Source: a virus (lineage: Duplodnaviria; Heunggongvirae; Uroviricota; Caudoviricetes). Taken from it: a DNA stretch of 48,551 bases. The notes below the pieces were generated by a model, which was given only the letters and a program-made list of their open reading frames with translations, had not been told where the DNA came from and did no database searches. A program made the position numbers and the translations under genes. The number at the start of each line of letters is the position of its first letter. Within the stretch, counting starts at the first letter, position 1. This document shows positions 3,487-14,896 of this stretch, in pieces. The stretch lies in IMG/VR virus record IMGVR_UViG_2627853771_000003; one strand, given 5' to 3'.

Positions 3487-4392
3487 CTATATTTCCAGAC
3501 ACCTGTTATCACTTAACCCATTACTGGCCTGCTGCCGCAGATATTCCCGTGGCGAGCGATAACCCAGTGCACTATGCGGGTGCCATTCGTTATAATGCTC
3601 GAACGCCTCTGCAAGGTTCTTTGCTGCCGTTAACCCGTCTGGTTTAGGCATGATACTGATGTAGTCACGCTTTATCGTTTTCACGAAGCTCTCTGCTATG
3701 CCGTTACTCTCCGGACTCCGCACCGCCGTGTTCTTCGGTTCAAGCCCTAATATCCGGGCAAACTGCCGTGTTTCATTAGCCCGGTAGCATGAACCATTAT
3801 CCGTCAGCCACTCTACTGGAGACGCCGGAAGCTCGTTGCCGAAGCGGCGTTCCACCGCTCCCAGCATGACGTCCTGTACTGTTTCACTGTCGAAGCCGCC
3901 CGTAGTGACTGCCCAGTGCAGTGCCTCACGGTCACAGCAGTCCAGCGCGAACGTGACTCGCAGTTTTTCTCCGTTATCACAGCGGAACTCGAACCCGTCA
4001 GAGCACCATCGTTGATTGCTTTCTTTCACGGCCACTTTGCCAGTATGTGCCCGTTTCGATGGCGGTACAGCGGTTTTTCGCTCAAGCAACAGCGCATTCT
4101 GGCGCATGATCCGGTAAACACGTTTGGCATTGATCGCAGGCATACCATCAAGTTCGGCCTGTCTGCGAAGCAGCGCCCATACCCGACGATAACCATACGT
4201 GGGCAGCTCTCCGATAACATGGTGTATACGGAGAAGCACATCCGTATCATCTGAGTGACGGCTGCGGCGACCATCTTTCCAGTCATCGGTTCGTCTGAGA
4301 ATTACGTGCAACTGCGCACGCGACACCCGGAGACAACGGCTGACTAAGCTTACTCCCCATCCCCGGGCAATAAGGGCGCGTGCGCTATCCAC
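3487..4392 (-). CDS. insD: IS2 transposase OrfB (InsD)
   Basis: 301-aa ORF with a DDE-type integrase core, recognised as IS2 InsD. Confidence 0.9.
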
Positions 4393-4715
4393 TTTTTTGC
4401 ACGCCCGTATTCAACGGCTTCTTTAAGGAGTTCATTTTCCATCGTTTTTTTGCCGAGCAGGCGCTGGAGTTCTTTAATCTGCTTCATGGCAGCAGCAAGT
4501 TCAGAGGCAGGAACGACCTGCTCTCCTGCGGCCACAGCAGTAAGACTTCCCTCCTGGTATTGCTTGCGCCAGAGAAATAACTGGCTGGCTGCCACACCGT
4601 GTTGCCGGGCAACAAGGGAGACCGTCATTCCCGGTTCAAAACTCTGCTGAACAATAGCGATCTTTTCCTGTGTAGTACGCCGTCTGCGTTTCTCCGGTCC
4701 TAAGACATCAATCAT
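4350..4715 (-). CDS. insC: IS2 OrfA (InsC), HTH protein
   Basis: [26 protein letters not shown]...; overlaps insD in the -1 frame as expected for programmed frameshifting. Confidence 0.85.
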
Positions 4716-4806
4716 CTGCTCTCCAATGACTAGTCTAAAAACTAGTATTAAGACTATCACTTATTTAAGTGATATTGGTTGTCTGGAGATTCATGGGGCC
4801 AGTCTA

Positions 4807-5290: not shown

Positions 5291-5348
5291 AAAAAGGGCG
5301 GCAGAGCAGTCACGGAGTAAAACTGATACCGCCAAACGTCACCAGAAA
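5291..5348 (-). ncRNA. dicF: DicF-like small RNA (ftsZ-targeting sRNA of the dicB operon)
   Basis: Minus-strand sequence TTTCTGGTGACGTTTGGCGGTATCAGTTTTACTCCGTGACTGCTCTGCCGCCCTTTTT, with a GGCGG...CCGCC stem followed by a U-run; sits between the ydfC-like and dicB genes with no protein-coding capacity. Confidence 0.6.
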
Positions 5349-6519: not shown

Positions 6520-6939
6520 TTAAGAGGCTTTTTGTTTTTTCTTTCGTGCTAACTCTTCGTAAATTGCATTGTACTTCTGTTTTTTCTCTTCAAGAGTTTT
6601 TAAAAGTTCATCTGTCTCACTGTCAGGGAGCTCGTCCAGAAGGTCAATGATGATTTTTTGTCTTGGATTTAACTCCTGATAGAAACGTACCTGTCCACTT
6701 TCTTCTGTATCCTCTCCCAAAAGATAGGTTGGTGTTGTTCCTATTAGTGTTGCTAATTCCCTTAATTTCTCCCGGCGAGGAATTGTTTCGCCATTAAACC
6801 ATTTGCTAACCGCTTTTGGTGTTAATTTCATTCGACGGGCAATTTCTGCCTGCCTTCCATGTTGTTCATAACCAGCGTTTTCACAGGCTAGCGCAAGCCT
6901 ACTGGCGAACTCTTTACGCGCTTTATCTTCATGAACCAT
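6520..6939 (-). CDS. DicA/RacR-like HTH (XRE-family) prophage repressor, no peptidase S24 domain
   Basis: 139 aa with an N-terminal HTH (GRQAEIARRMKLTPKAVSKWFNG) and an acidic C-terminal tail; divergent from the cro-like gene. Confidence 0.75.
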   Translation of the reverse strand: MVHEDKARKEFASRLALACENAGYEQHGRQAEIARRMKLTPKAVSKWFNGETIPRREKLRELATLIGTTPTYLLGEDTEESGQVRFYQELNPRQKIIIDLLDELPDSETDELLKTLEEKKQKYNAIYEELARKKKQKAS

Positions 6940-7018
6940 AAGTTCAATGATATTCGCTCTTGAATGTACTGTCAGTTCTGTTATAGCATGTACTCAAAGT
7001 TCACACTGTGAGGGTGAT
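6940..7018. promoter_or_regulatory. divergent repressor/cro control region with candidate operator repeats
   Basis: 79-bp intergenic region between divergent HTH genes; two 16-bp direct repeats ATGTACTnnnAGTTC-like (about 6963-6978 and 6987-7002). Confidence 0.4.
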
Positions 7019-7273
7019 ATGAACCAGAAAACACTTGAAGATGTAATCAAAACTGTTCGCGTTGCTGTTGTGGCCGACGTTTGTGGTGTCAGCCAAAGAG
7101 CAATCTATAAATGGATGGATAACGGAAAATTGCCTCGCACAGAATATACCGGCGAAACAAATTACGCTGAAAAAATCGCTCTTGCATCAAACGGATTATT
7201 TTCTGCCGATGCAATTTTAACTATTGGCAGGAATAAAACTACTACGAAAAAGCTGATGGGAGTTGATTCATGA
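7019..7273 (+). CDS. Cro/DicC/YdaS-like HTH regulator
   Basis: ATG at 7019 preceded by GAGGG; product MNQKTLEDVIKTVRVAVVADVCGVSQRAIYKWMDNGKLPR... Confidence 0.7.
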   Translation: MNQKTLEDVIKTVRVAVVADVCGVSQRAIYKWMDNGKLPRTEYTGETNYAEKIALASNGLFSADAILTIGRNKTTTKKLMGVDS

Positions 7274-7695
7274 AAATCAAGCATGAACACATCCGCATGG
7301 CGATGAATGCCTGGGCGCATCCGGACGGCGAAAAAGTACCGGCTGCGAAAATTACCAAAGCGTATTTCGAGCTGGGAATGACGTTCCCGGAACTGTATGA
7401 CGACAACCATCCGGAAGCCCTGGCTCGCAATACTCAGAAAATTTTCCGCTGGGTGGAGAAAGACACCCCTGATGCGGTTAAAAAAATTCAGGCGTTGTTA
7501 CCAGCTATCGAAAAAGCAATGCCACCTCTGCTGGTGGCCCGAATGCGCAGTCATAGCTCAGCATATTTTCGGGAACTAGTGGAGACGCGGGAACGACTGG
7601 TGAGAGACGCTGATGATTTTGTCGCAGTGGCGATCGCTGGTTTCAACCAGATGAATCGTGGTGGCCCTGCAGGAAATATTGTGGCTGTGCATTGA
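7270..7695 (+). CDS. YdaT/CII-like early regulatory protein
   Basis: 141 aa starting MKIKHEHI, overlapping the cro-like stop; position equivalent to cII/ydaT. Confidence 0.6.
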   Translation: MKIKHEHIRMAMNAWAHPDGEKVPAAKITKAYFELGMTFPELYDDNHPEALARNTQKIFRWVEKDTPDAVKKIQALLPAIEKAMPPLLVARMRSHSSAYFRELVETRERLVRDADDFVAVAIAGFNQMNRGGPAGNIVAVH

Positions 7696-7766
7696 CTCGC
7701 AATATTCATACCGGATCACTTCCGGCAATTTGTGAGTAAAAAGATTCGGTATCAAAAGAGGTGAGT

Positions 7767-8837
7767 ATGGCTAACGCCTGGCTCAGATTATGGCATGACA
7801 TGCCAAATGACCCTAAGTGGCGAACAATTGCCAGGGTGTCAGGGCAGCCAATTGCAACAGTGATGGCAGTGTATATCCACCTCCTGGTGAGCGCGTCACG
7901 AAATGTCACGCGAGGTCACATTGATGTCACGACAGAAGATTTGGCAAGTGCGCTCGACGTGACAGAAGAGGTAATTGATTCAATTTTGCAGACGATGCAG
8001 GGGCGGGTACTTGATGGTGATTTAATCACTGGATGGGAAAAACGCCAGGTGCTTAAAGAGGACAACGGCAATATTTCGCAAACCGCAAAATCTCCGGCAG
8101 AGCGCAAGAGGGCGCAGCGAGAGAGGGAAAGAAAGCGGGAACAAAATGGCGATTGTCACGGCGCGTCACGAAATGTCACGCACATGTCACGACGAGTCAC
8201 GACAGATAAAGATACAGATAAAGATACAGATCAAGAAGATCAAAACACTATGGTCCATGGCGTAAAAAACGCCACGAACCAGGCAGGGGATGTTCAGACC
8301 GTCAATCCTGGTCAGCCAGCAGGCACGACACCGGAAGCCGATTCAGCGTATGCGCTGAAAGCCGATTCGGGCGCTGTGCAGCAGGTGATGACCCCAAGGC
8401 CGGAGCAATCACACCAACTGCAGCAGCCTGAAGCCGATTCCGCCATTCAGCGGGAAGCCGATCGGGTAGTCCCGGAAAACACCGGGCTGTCTGTGGGACG
8501 AGTGGATTATCCGGATGTGTTCGAACAGGTCTGGCGGGAGTACCCGTTGCGTGCCGGAGCAAACCCGAAGAAATCCGCTTTCAGTGCCTGGAAGGCCAGA
8601 TTACGCGAGGGGGTGCCACCAGAGGACATGCTGGATGGCGTGAGGCGTTACGCAAGATACTTGGCGGCTACCGGGAAAACGGGAACGGAATTTGTTCAGC
8701 GAGCGACGACGTTTTTTGGACCGGACCGGAATTTTGAGAACCCCTGGTTGCTCCCGGTAAGCGGCACGAACAACCAGCGTTGTGTGAATCATATTTCTGA
8801 ACCGGATAACGAAATTCCGCCGGGCTTCAGGGGGTAA
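7767..8837 (+). CDS. replication initiation protein (lambda O-like / YdaU-type), iterons inside the gene
   Basis: ATG at 7767 with SD AAGAGG; N-terminus MANAWLRLWHDMPNDPKWR; internal DKDTDKDTD linker; two GTCACG iteron arrays lie in the coding sequence. Confidence 0.65.
   Translation: MANAWLRLWHDMPNDPKWRTIARVSGQPIATVMAVYIHLLVSASRNVTRGHIDVTTEDLASALDVTEEVIDSILQTMQGRVLDGDLITGWEKRQVLKEDNGNISQTAKSPAERKRAQRERERKREQNGDCHGASRNVTHMSRRVTTDKDTDKDTDQEDQNTMVHGVKNATNQAGDVQTVNPGQPAGTTPEADSAYALKADSGAVQQVMTPRPEQSHQLQQPEADSAIQREADRVVPENTGLSVGRVDYPDVFEQVWREYPLRAGANPKKSAFSAWKARLREGVPPEDMLDGVRRYARYLAATGKTGTEFVQRATTFFGPDRNFENPWLLPVSGTNNQRCVNHISEPDNEIPPGFRG
7891..7931 (+). repeat. iteron array A: four GTCAC(G/A) repeats at about 10-bp spacing
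   Basis: GTCACG at 7895 and 7905, GTCACA at 7915, GTCACG at 7926; the 20-mer GCGCGTCACGAAATGTCACG is repeated exactly at 8161. Confidence 0.55.
8151..8246 (+). promoter_or_regulatory. candidate replication origin: five GTCACG iterons followed by an A-rich tandem repeat
   Basis: GTCACG at 8155, 8165, 8175, 8186 and 8196 (one helical turn apart), then GATAAAGATACAGATAAAGATACAGATCAAGAAGATCAAAAC. Confidence 0.5.
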
Positions 8838-8877
8838 GTGTTAATTTCTGGTCATGAGGTAATTTTCAGGAGGACTT

Positions 8878-9303
8878 GTGGCAAAAGTTTTTACACAAGA
8901 AGAGCGGGAAAAAATTAAAGGGCAGGTTGTTGAACTCGTACGCCAGAGTGGGCGCGAGACGTTACGACAACTGGAAACTAAAACTGGGGCAACAAGATAT
9001 CTGATGAGTGTTCTGGCCAGAGAGCTGGTTGCCAGTGGCGATGTATACAACTCTGGTTACGGGTTATTCCCGTCTGAACAGGCGCGTAAGGACTGGCAAA
9101 ATGCCCGTAAAAAGCTCTCAAGGGCAAAGCTGAAGAAACCATCTGCGGTTGATCCGGACCTTATCTGGTCATTACCTGACGGAGAAATACGTCGCTACGA
9201 TAGTTGTCTAAACATAATCTGTCGCGAGTGCCGGAAGAGCGAAGTTATGCAGCGCATTCTGGCATTTTATCAGGGAAATGTTAGGTATTTTAGACGTTAC
9301 TAG
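8878..9303 (+). CDS. hypothetical protein, probable winged-helix DNA-binding domain
   Basis: 141 aa, GTG start with SD AGGAGGA; follows the O-like gene where a helicase loader would be expected but is too small and unlike DnaC/P. Confidence 0.5.
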   Translation: MAKVFTQEEREKIKGQVVELVRQSGRETLRQLETKTGATRYLMSVLARELVASGDVYNSGYGLFPSEQARKDWQNARKKLSRAKLKKPSAVDPDLIWSLPDGEIRRYDSCLNIICRECRKSEVMQRILAFYQGNVRYFRRY

Positions 9304-9530
9304 ATTAAAGGGCATTAGTTCAGATATGCATTGACATTTTCATGGCACAAGGTAGAGCTAGCGTGGTTGTTCGCTTTGTGCCAAGAGTGGTCATTGATAA
9401 TATTTTGGTGGGTTACATCTGTCAATGTTTCAGGTGATATGATATACAAATAGCCAGACTTAGACTGGCATGCTGTTTATTTTTATATTATGGGTGTGCC
9501 ACATGGATTTAAAACTTATTGAGATATGAC

Positions 9531-10556
9531 ATGGATACTTTTCATAATATTTTGCTTGAGCACATAGACAGCCTTTTAAAAGAGAGACTTGATTTATCTG
9601 GTGACGCTGATATCGAAAAAGAAATTAATAACCTAATTCCCAAAATAGCCATTGTCGTTAAAAAATCTCTTATTGGCTCGGCCAATGCAATGCTTAGAGA
9701 ACATCGTTCTCTTTGTGATGAATTTGTTGAGAGAAATATTTCAAGATGGGCAGAGGCTTTTGATTTGCTCGAAACACTTATAGTGATATGCACGGAGTCC
9801 GGTGAAGAGTTCAATCGTTCTTATAGACCACAAGCTGCCTCTGAAGAGGATGTGGTTTTTGATTTAGTCGTTCGGCATCACGCAAGAGCTTGCCACATCG
9901 CCAACGAAATTTTGTGTCTCTTAAAGAATGGATTTGCAGATGCTGCCCAAGCGAGATGGCGAGCACTTCATGAGGTAGCGGCCACAGCTATGTTTATAGC
10001 AAAGCATGGAAAAGAGTGTGCTGAGCGCTTTTACTACCATGAAGTGGTTGATTCATATACTGGAATGTTGGAACACAAAAAGTACGAGCACCGGTTAGAA
10101 GCAAAAGGTCCAACTATTGAAGAAATAGCTGAGTGTAAAGTTCAATTTGATCTATTAATAAAAAAATATGGCAAAAAATATGCAGATAATTATGGCTGGG
10201 CATCTTATATTTTCCCTAACCATAATAAAGTGGGGTTTGGAGCTATTGAGAAAGATGTTCAGTTAGAACACATGCGCCCTTATTATAAGTGGGCGAGTCA
10301 GAATGTACACACCGGTTCCAAGGCAATGAGAAATAGGCTTGGTCTCTGTGAAACTGGTGATGATATATTATTGGTCGGGCAAAGTGATTCAGGAATGGCT
10401 GAACCAGCCCATGCTACTGCTATTAGTTTGATGCAGATTACTGTGACACTTTTATTTTTAAAACCAACCATTGATCATGCCGTCATTTCAAAAATAATAC
10501 AGGATTATTCTGATGAGATTGGAAATGTATTTCTTAAAATTGATAAGGGTAATTAA
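9531..10556 (+). CDS. orphan protein of unknown function in an AT-rich island (candidate accessory/defence gene)
   Basis: 341 aa from the first ATG (the track ORF begins at a TTG at 9519). AT-rich coding sequence flanked by AT-rich non-coding DNA; no family recognised; contains RHHARACH (R-x6-H). Confidence 0.6.
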   Translation: MDTFHNILLEHIDSLLKERLDLSGDADIEKEINNLIPKIAIVVKKSLIGSANAMLREHRSLCDEFVERNISRWAEAFDLLETLIVICTESGEEFNRSYRPQAASEEDVVFDLVVRHHARACHIANEILCLLKNGFADAAQARWRALHEVAATAMFIAKHGKECAERFYYHEVVDSYTGMLEHKKYEHRLEAKGPTIEEIAECKVQFDLLIKKYGKKYADNYGWASYIFPNHNKVGFGAIEKDVQLEHMRPYYKWASQNVHTGSKAMRNRLGLCETGDDILLVGQSDSGMAEPAHATAISLMQITVTLLFLKPTIDHAVISKIIQDYSDEIGNVFLKIDKGN

Positions 10557-10932: not shown

Positions 10933-11143
10933 TTTTATATTGGCGAGGTGACGGGAGTTAAGTAGAATTGCTGCGGGTGCTTGAGGCTATCTGCCTCAGG
11001 CATGAACACCAAAGGCAGATAGAGAAAAGCCCCAGTTAACATTACGCGTCCTGCAAGACGTTTAACATTAATCTGAGGCTCAATCTATGAACGGCAAATC
11101 TAGGTTAGCCTCTTGCGTGCCGAAAGGCAAGGAGAAGCAGGCT

Positions 11144-11299
11144 ATGAAGCAGCAAAAGGCGATGTTAATCGCCCTGATCGTCATCTGTTTAACCGTCATA
11201 GTGACGGCACTGGTAACGAGGAAAGACCTCTGCGAGGTACGAATCCGAACCGGCCAGACGGAGGTCGCTGTCTTCACAGCTTACGAACCTGAGGAGTAA
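11144..11299 (+). CDS. hokD: Hok/Gef-family type I toxin (HokD/RelF-like)
   Basis: 51-aa product MKQQKAMLIALIVICLTVIVTALVTRKDLCEVRIRTGQTEVAVFTAYEPEE; an in-frame upstream ATG at 11087 gives a mok-like extension; terminator follows. Confidence 0.85.
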   Translation: MKQQKAMLIALIVICLTVIVTALVTRKDLCEVRIRTGQTEVAVFTAYEPEE

Positions 11300-14062: not shown

Positions 14063-14896
14063 ATGATAAAAAAACCTGTGATTGGGATCAGCGGTTGTTT
14101 GGGCGGTTCTGCTGTTCGTTTTGATGGTGGTCACAAAAGAGATGACTTTTTAATGGACAAATTAGTGGAATGGGTAACATTCAGACCAGTATGTCCGGAA
14201 ATGGCTATAGGGCTGCCAGTTCCGCGTCCTGCTCTACGACTTGTGCGCTCGAAGCAAGGAAATATACGGATGTGTTTCAGCCACGACCAGAATGAGGATG
14301 TGACAGAGAGAATGACAGAGTTTAGTCGTTCTTATATGGACAAATTAAAGGATGTATCGGGGTTTGTGGTTTGTGCTAAATCTCCCAGCTGTGGCATGGA
14401 GCGCGTGCGTGTCTATGATGAAAATGGTAATCGAGGTCGTAAAGATGGAGTGGGACTATTTACGAGCACTTTGATGGAAAAGTTTTCCTGGCTACCGGTT
14501 GAAGAGGATGGGCGATTACATGATCCAGTGCTTCGTGAGAATTTTATTGAAAGAGTTTTTGCTTTGCATGAGCTCAATCACCTTTACAAGGAGAAATTAT
14601 CAAGAAGAGAGTTATTAGCTTTTCATAGTCGTTATAAGCTTCAGTTGTTGGCGCATAGCCAGGCAGGCTATAAAGATATGGGACCATTTGTGGCTGCAAT
14701 ACACGAGTGGGCGGACCTTGAATCATACTTTGAGGTGTATCGTGATAATCTGATGGCGATTCTCAGAAAACCAGCATCACGTAAAAATCACACGAATGTG
14801 CTGATGCATATACAGGGGTATTTTAGTAATTACTTAAGTACACGCCAGCGTAAAGAGTTGAGCGAGGTTATACTTAACTTGATCCTACCCACGTAA
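14063..14896 (+). pseudogene. DUF523 (TudS-like, three-Cys cluster) + DUF1722 fusion protein gene, 3' end interrupted by IS3
   Basis: N-terminus MIKKPVIGISGCLGG with Cys12/Cys44/Cys105. The frame enters IS3 at 14880 and stops after 5 foreign codons. Removing IS3 and one TSD copy restores a 47-codon continuation ending at 16283. Confidence 0.7.

Follow-up and report, generated by a model that had tools for sequence, protein, structure and literature searches.

Initiator gene with two repeat arrays

The DNA considered here (the window) is the whole stretch of 48,551 nt of IMG/VR record IMGVR_UViG_2627853771_000003, assigned to the Caudoviricetes. The initiator gene lies in a lambdoid Escherichia coli prophage, in an early-right region with the following order: a cI-like gene, a Cro-like helix-turn-helix (HTH) gene, a cII-like/YdaT gene, the open reading frame (ORF) of a 356-residue replication initiator, and a DUF977/Ren-like gene. 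Within the initiator gene lie two arrays of the short direct repeat GTCACG, array 1 in the codons of the N-terminal domain (N-domain) and array 2 further downstream, the latter followed directly by an AT-rich tract. These repeats are very probably the replication origin of the prophage, located inside the gene of its own initiator. The features are collected in Table 1.

Table 1. Positions of the initiator gene, the proposed origin parts and the neighbouring regulatory genes in the window.
Feature	Position	Strand	Remarks
cI-like repressor gene	6520-6939	minus	
Cro-like HTH gene	6947-7273		
cII-like / YdaT gene	7270-7695		
Initiator gene, 356 aa	7767-8837	+	"phage replisome organizer" family
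N-terminal helical domain codons, aa 1-95	7767-8051	+	winged-helix-like; presumed iteron-binding domain
Exact 21-mer GCGCGTCACGAAATGTCACGC	7891-7911, second copy 8161-8181	+	
Array 1, proposed auxiliary iterons	7895-7931	+	overprinted on codons 43-55 (SRNVTRGHIDVT)
Single inverted unit	7958-7963	-	reads CGTGAC on the + strand; 27 bp downstream of array 1
Array 2, proposed main iterons	8155-8201	+	five (T)GTCACG(A/C) units; codons of aa 130-145
AT-rich, purine-rich tract, proposed DNA-unwinding element	8202-8250	+	about 3x 12-bp ACAGATAAAGAT (8202-8237), then GATCAAAAC
Imperfect palindrome	8251-8281		core TGGCGT-aaaaa-ACGCCA, 8257-8273; adjoins the AT-rich tract
C-terminal tail, aa 332-356 (...SEPDNEIPPGFRG)	8760-8834	+	similar to the C-terminal tail of DnaT, a primosomal protein of the host

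Array 1 contains exact GTCACG units at 7895, 7905, and 7926 and a GTCACA at 7915-7920, spaced by 10, 10, and 11 bp. In array 2, five exact units start at 8155, 8165, 8175, 8186, and 8196, with a spacing of 10, 10, 11, and 10 bp. The original prediction, made from the letters of the window, had counted four GTCACG units in the first array and five in the second; the ~10-bp array is indeed present in the first case, with three exact units and one variant in place of four, and the count for the second is correct. An exactly duplicated 20-mer, found at 7891 and 8161, extends to 21 nt, and the A-rich tandem repeat reported after the second array was recovered by the TRF program at 8202-8236 with a period of 12, 2.9 copies, and 95% matches.

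The hexamer GTCACG occurs 34 times on both strands of the window (22.5 ± 5.4 expected), and nine of these occurrences fall inside 310 bp. In 20,000 random placements, the maximum was six per 310 bp, compared with the nine observed, and four per 50 bp, compared with the five observed; chance as the source of the clustering is excluded. The codon phases of the hexamer are 2, 0, 1, 0 in array 1 and 1, 2, 0, 2, 0 in array 2. All three frames are thus used, the same hexamer is read as different peptides (SR, VT, and GH), and therefore no single peptide is what is conserved. The translation does contain the repeated SRNVT/RVTT peptides that had been noticed before, with ASRNVT at aa 43-48 and again at aa 134-139, plus RVTT.

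Conservation and co-variation of the arrays

Relatives of the N-domain were gathered at 60 loci, one genome per species, from Gamma-, Beta-, and Alphaproteobacteria. Their identity is 34-99% at the amino acid level over the best-matching segment, and 56 diverged loci (35-99%) entered the array analysis. Most of them carry two hexamer arrays with 10-11 bp spacing, at ORF nt ~129-160 and ~360-430. The possibility raised earlier, that the repeats might be absent from otherwise conserved homologs, is thus answered by arrays standing at the same positions in most diverged homologs. Array 2 was found in 49 of the 56 loci. It occurs alone in some of them (L037, L051, and L056), and array 1 occurs alone in none, which suggests that array 1 is the dispensable partner of the two. 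In three loci from the A+T-rich hosts Ventosimonas and Entomomonas (L027, L030, and L041), array 1 is absent, and one or two degenerate AAACG(C/A) units are kept, followed by a long (GATAAA)n tract; this may be a minimal form of the origin.

The type of unit differs by lineage, being (T)GTCACG, (T)GTAACG(C), or (C)CGAACG(C), and it follows the lineage of the N-domain, which is the sole constant partner of the arrays. When at least three units per array were demanded, both arrays of a locus were of the same type in every case (26 GTCAC/GTCAC, 7 GAACG/GAACG, and 1 GTAAC/GTAAC; no discordant locus). With at least two units per array, the concordant loci were ~26 of GTCAC, ~17 of GAACG, and ~5 of GTAAC type, again with no mismatch. 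Because the unit types interleave on a rough neighbour-joining tree of the N-domain, calculated with the array columns masked, at least five switches of unit type are suggested, each made in both arrays together. Runs of 17 nt or more are shared between the two arrays in 33% of the loci, in comparison to 11% of cross-locus controls. The peptide encoded by array 1 was considered as the determinant of specificity for its own unit and rejected; L037, L055, and L057 have GTCAC arrays and an unrelated peptide at this place. Inspection by eye of the N-domain columns revealed no clear one that tracks the unit type, in a comparison confounded by phylogeny.

The entropy of third codon positions is 0.21 bits inside the array-1 hexamers and 1.39 bits outside (Mann–Whitney p = 2e-5). 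This was calculated for 16 GTCACG-type loci, whose first 300 nt are 62-77% identical (median 69% nt identity). Synonymous sites are thus frozen within the hexamers only. Among 81 E. coli copies that are nearly identical, what little variation there is falls mostly into the spacers that separate the hexamers; 80 viral-contig loci are ~99% identical to the window and are informative for variation within the lineage only. The constraint on the arrays thus acts on DNA and not on protein. The upstream cluster is also found at other N-domain sites in divergent clades, at ORF nt 75-104 in L055 and L057 and in the codons of helix 5, as HVSRIVT, in L215 and L249; therefore, the cluster as such appears to be selected. 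The single inverted unit has counterparts elsewhere: of 26 GTCAC-type loci, 21 contain an inverted motif of matching type no more than 60 nt from array 1, and motifs of another type are rare. This is weak evidence, since the conserved peptide LDVT is encoded by the same unit.

In the reverse direction, viral contigs were searched for three GTCACG units spaced exactly 10 bp apart, and 119 contigs were found. The N-domain signature motif was present upstream in 83 of them, several of the remaining ones proved to be more distant relatives with the same layout, and 89 of the 119 have a second cluster on the same strand at a distance of 100-400 nt. Apparently intergenic arrays with exact 10-bp spacing, e.g., TTGTCACGGATTGTCACGGATTGTCACG, were seen in the viral contigs L148, L158, L172, L211, L223, and L260, with no recognisable N-domain near them. 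Another viral contig, L180, has an initiator-like ORF with a different N-terminus (VDWIKIRRG...), in which GTCAC clusters at ORF nt 150-206 and 491-511, ~330 bp apart, are followed by (GAGAAG)n. This suggests that the two-cluster layout reaches beyond the family studied.

AT-rich tract and palindrome

In the 42 nt that follow the final unit of array 2, the A+T content is 66% on average, compared to 44% for the ORF, and it exceeds that of the ORF in 48 of 49 loci, including loci from G+C-rich hosts. The tract is purine-rich on the coding strand, its typical motifs being (AGATAA)n, (ACAGAT)n, or (GAGAAG)n. The GC content of the window dips to 0.35 at this place, and the least stable 40-bp duplex in 7700-8900 begins at 8206, with a free energy of -43.4 kcal/mol in comparison to a median of -57.9 kcal/mol. 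A DnaA-trio-like reading of the GAT-period repeat was rejected by inspection, since just one triplet in two agrees with such a reading and the orientation of the strand does not.

The palindrome beyond the tract has a DNA folding energy of -8.7 kcal/mol (z = -2.9) and is possibly, with some uncertainty, a fourth element of the origin. Short GC-rich stems lie 35-62 nt after the last iteron in ~23 of 49 loci, and only 6 of the 49 beat every shuffle; the recurrence of such stems is thus weak in statistical terms. Among the stems found after the AT-rich tract in L003, L010, L019, L029, L031, L048, L215, and L249, the stems vary and the loops recur (tcactacgttc, tggc, tgcc, and taac); both sides of the stem are changed between L215 and L249.

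Domains of the initiator and module exchange

The initiator is named "phage replisome organizer" by NCBI, and its entire length is matched by phrog_3729, "replication initiation protein" (E 9e-256). Its ATG at 7767 is preceded by GAGG at 7757-7760, and homologs begin with MANAW; the program-made ORF list begins at the GTG at 7761. The full-length gene is present in 1646 of 5426 complete E. coli genomes (~30%). PHROG families named "replisome organizer" or "DnaD-like" match the N-terminal half at 1e-9 to 2e-4, the weaker "replisome organizer" matches including phrog_4880 (6e-6) and phrog_5968 (2e-4). No Pfam family was found for the 356-aa protein at E ≤ 0.01, and the diverged homolog L029 matches PF09681 (Phage_rep_org_N) at E 0.0047, below the cut-off. 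A tblastn search with the N-domain against 50,697 phage records returned 25 records, among which lambda, P22, phi80, and other classical lambdoid phages are absent.

The AlphaFold model predicts N-terminal helices at residues 4-14, 16-25, 29-49, 56-63, and 67-77, a disordered linker at residues 128-243 with a predicted local distance difference test (pLDDT) score below 50, and a confident C-terminal domain at residues 245-330. Residues 43-55, encoded by array 1, comprise the last part of helix 3 plus the loop 50-55, and the pLDDT of residues 48-51 is below 50. Array 2 covers the codons of residues 130-145, within the predicted disordered linker, which is otherwise without conservation around the array. 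The coding sequence can plausibly tolerate the arrays because both encode segments predicted to be flexible. Foldseek comparison of the whole-protein model with the PDB gave nothing better than E 2.8, in a search spoiled by the long disordered linker, and a profile search with the N-domain against PDB sequences gave no match. A second direct repeat is present in the same gene, at 8331-8366 and 8427-8462 (36 nt, 75% identical). It encodes PEADSA...EADSA in a Pro/Ala/Gln-rich spacer, and the 324-344-aa E. coli homologs differ from the 356-aa form by deletions in this repeat region.

In a phmmer search of the PDB, the C-terminal tail matched 6aep, "Primosomal protein 1", with E 0.0024 and 9zbt, "Replication restart protein DnaT", with E 0.067. 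The NCBIfam DnaT family was matched with E 7e-4 and 19 bits, the cut-off being 201. The DnaT DNA-binding domain, PF17948, was not found in the window initiator by Pfam search; it is present in P0096 and L009, relatives that share the N-terminal half. Relatives join the segment made of N-domain and arrays to different C-terminal halves. Where E. coli genomes match the gene only in part, the match breaks off at ORF nt 458/476 (window 8224-8242), and many E. coli prophages share ORF nt 1-458 only or nt 476-1071 only. The AT-rich repeat ends at these breakpoints, and the N-domain and the arrays therefore behave as one exchangeable module. What follows the module differs in how a helicase is provided; in a 50.9-kb circular Pseudomonas element, for example, the module, with 4+4 GTCACG units, adjoins a gene for a phage DnaB-like helicase. 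The element (L142; CP137943.1, P. aeruginosa) has the initiator homolog at 3501-4390, where no gene is annotated for it; the only annotation overlapping its start is a 123-nt "hypothetical protein". The circular 50.9-kb Pseudomonas records are probably phage genomes, so their circularity is no proof of autonomous replication.

Prophage setting

The genes downstream of the initiator encode DUF977/Ren-like, DUF5677, and DUF968 proteins and Q, and none directly next to it is of P, DnaC, or DnaB type. Domain and PHROG annotation revealed no gene for a helicase or helicase loader between the initiator and Q. The DUF5677 gene (9519-10556), directly after the replication genes, is a probable cargo gene, and so is the gene at 14063-14896 for a 2-thiouracil desulfurase-like plus DUF1722 protein. 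An IS3-family insertion sequence with an HTH_Tnp_1 ORF and an rve integrase-core ORF occupies 3487-4760 on the minus strand, in the early-left region. Rfam matches above the gathering score are the DicF small RNA at 5296-5347 (-), a sok antitoxin RNA of a hok/sok-type module at 10975-11149 (+), and a cspA thermoregulator leader at 19920-20317 (+).

Proposed origin and alternative explanations

At least three phased direct repeats beside an AT-rich element, conserved in relatives, constitute the layout of an iteron-type origin, and this layout was found here. The best explanation, which we consider likely, is a two-array origin, in which array 2 and the AT-rich tract would form the core and array 1 would serve the same initiator as an auxiliary site. 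This assignment of roles is the most likely one because some lineages have array 2 only and none has array 1 only. In the proposed core origin, one TGTCACG unit per helical turn of array 2 would abut the AT/purine-rich unwinding repeat at 8202-8250, all of it set in the linker codons between the winged-helix-like N-terminal domain and the C-terminal domain. The four units of array 1, situated 260 bp upstream, would provide binding sites of the same kind. In the proposed course of events, N-domains of the initiator would first fill the units in array 1 and array 2 on a single face of the DNA. Next, the bound arrays might associate, with the ~230-bp spacer looped or wrapped into an O-some-like complex, and the resulting strain could open the adjoining AT-rich repeat. 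The C-terminal domain, together with the DnaT-like tail, would then bring in the host helicase machinery; recruitment from the host is proposed because the phage encodes no helicase or loader.

Several observations weigh against this model. Clear arrays are missing from 7 or 8 homologs (L027, L030, L041, L043, L045, L046, and L054). The helical phasing of one array relative to the other gives a Rayleigh p of 0.09 at 10.5 bp per turn, and it is non-random only at an assumed 10.0 bp per turn (p ~0.001), for loci that are not independent. As the phasing is not clearly conserved, looping is without support from geometry. The co-variation of the arrays may come partly from gene conversion between them and not from co-selection for specificity. 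All three unit types have the ACG core in common, and for this reason the "specificity classes" are still hypothetical. The similarity of the tail to DnaT is short and below family cut-offs. Finally, no publication or experiment on the origin of this family or on GTCACG iterons was found in the open-access literature.

A bolder version of the two-array model is possible, and we hold it only tentatively. It assumes that a looped origin in two parts cannot do without the upstream array as one of its halves, that this array was overprinted repeatedly on different parts of the codons of the DNA-binding domain (at least three placements), and that initiator/iteron classes (GTCACG, GTAACG, and CGAACG) switch in concert and constitute natural incompatibility groups among co-resident prophages.

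The main alternative, in our opinion unlikely, is that only array 2 and the AT-rich repeat are the origin and that array 1 is a control locus which limits or times initiation, similar to incA of P1. Array 1 could then titrate the initiator, "handcuff" with the origin, or block transcription or translation of the initiator gene. Its dispensability in some lineages, where array 2 is never the sole one missing, agrees with such a role, as does the helical phasing between the arrays, which is not clearly conserved. Since array 1 lies inside the initiator coding sequence, downstream of the start, bound protein could act as a roadblock. [quoted passage not shown] However, there is little obvious need to restrain copy number at the origin of a phage in its lytic cycle, and the extra, weakly bound iterons of Shiga toxin (Stx) phages are required for replication and are not inhibitory (PMC7466680). 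The upstream cluster, variable in its placement, always lies 190-330 bp upstream on the same strand, which fits an architectural role at least equally well.

We regard it as very improbable that the repeats bind another protein, such as a host factor or the cII-like or Cro-like regulator, and serve transcription control or act as a pause or roadblock. Operator arrays can also be short direct repeats in helical phase, and ~20-30 viral contigs have GTCACG arrays, some of them intergenic, with no recognisable N-domain. However, it is the N-domain that accompanies the arrays across differing neighbours and C-terminal halves, and the unit type changes with its lineage. The combination of an AT-rich tract with a mid-gene linker position is the signature of the lambda and SPP1 origins (PMC7466680, PMC5737612), and no DnaA box with one mismatch or fewer is present in 7600-8900. 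The last alternative, that the repeats have no binding function as DNA and are a by-product of a selected peptide repeat or of a gene conversion or recombination junction, could draw on the doubled ASRNVT, the enriched shared runs, and the mosaic breakpoints at the end of the AT-rich repeat; however, it is strongly disfavoured by the three reading frames of the hexamer, the frozen synonymous sites, the disordered and otherwise unconserved linker around array 2, the persistence of the arrays with 10-11 bp phasing from Alpha- to Gammaproteobacteria, and the location of the breakpoints after the AT-rich tract and not within the arrays.

If the two-array model is correct, then it gives a probable origin, with parts assigned at base level, for an unstudied initiator family in prophages from Alpha- to Gammaproteobacteria. 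It would also be a case of a cis-element shaping a protein, as sites read in three frames fix the peptide in a segment of the DNA-binding domain, and the same overprinting solution appears at different places in related genes. The three matched unit classes are candidates for natural orthogonal initiator/origin pairs.

Comparison with known systems

An iteron origin inside the initiator gene is a classical kind of feature. What is new here is the use of short repeats with one unit per turn, a second cluster overprinted in all three frames on the codons of the DNA-binding domain, the recurrence of this cluster at different positions, and the concerted switching of unit type.

In lambda, the iterons and the AT-rich unwinding tract of oriλ lie in the middle of gene O (PMC7466680; PMC6022878). 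As in lambda and the Stx phages 933W and P27, the origin proposed here is placed mid-gene, between the origin-binding N-terminal part of the initiator and the C-terminal part. As in lambda, the putative initiator-binding repeats are directly followed by the AT-rich tract, and the module of N-terminal domain plus origin recombines as a unit. A palindrome follows the AT-rich tract in lambda too; the one found here is weaker. The lambda-like arrangement that had been predicted is thus supported in that mid-gene iterons and an adjoining AT-rich tract are present and conserved. The likeness does not extend to the protein or to the repeats themselves: no sequence homology of the initiator to O was detected, and the units are direct repeats that have a conserved core of 6-8 bp, recur every 10-11 bp, and lack internal symmetry. 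The lambda iterons, four to six in number, are ~19 bp long, possess internal dyad symmetry, and are each bound by an O dimer. The second array within the codons of the DNA-binding domain has no lambda counterpart, and instead of a P gene there is the DnaT-like tail.

Similarly, oriL of SPP1 is placed in gene 38 and consists of AB boxes bound by the replisome organizer G38P and an adjacent AT-rich unwinding element (PMC5737612). The name of the protein class, "replisome organizer", and the embedding of the origin in the organizer's own gene are common to both systems. In contrast to the locus described here, the second binding region of SPP1, oriR, is a distant locus and not a cluster in the same gene, and SPP1 encodes its own loader and helicase (G39P and G40P). 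The homology of the N-domain to PF09681 is subthreshold here.

Two separate clusters served by one initiator are known from the satellite phage P4 (ori and crr) and from the plasmid-prophage P1 (oriR iterons and incA). The P4 clusters are jointly used for initiation, and one of the P1 clusters is used for control. The initiators, P4 alpha primase-helicase and P1 RepA, are unrelated to the one described here, and their clusters are intergenic or kilobases apart, whereas here both are overprinted on the initiator reading frame. In all three, a short repeat, known or here presumed to bind the initiator, forms two clusters that stand apart from each other, and the present system offers a direct way to ask if a distant second iteron cluster aids or restrains initiation.

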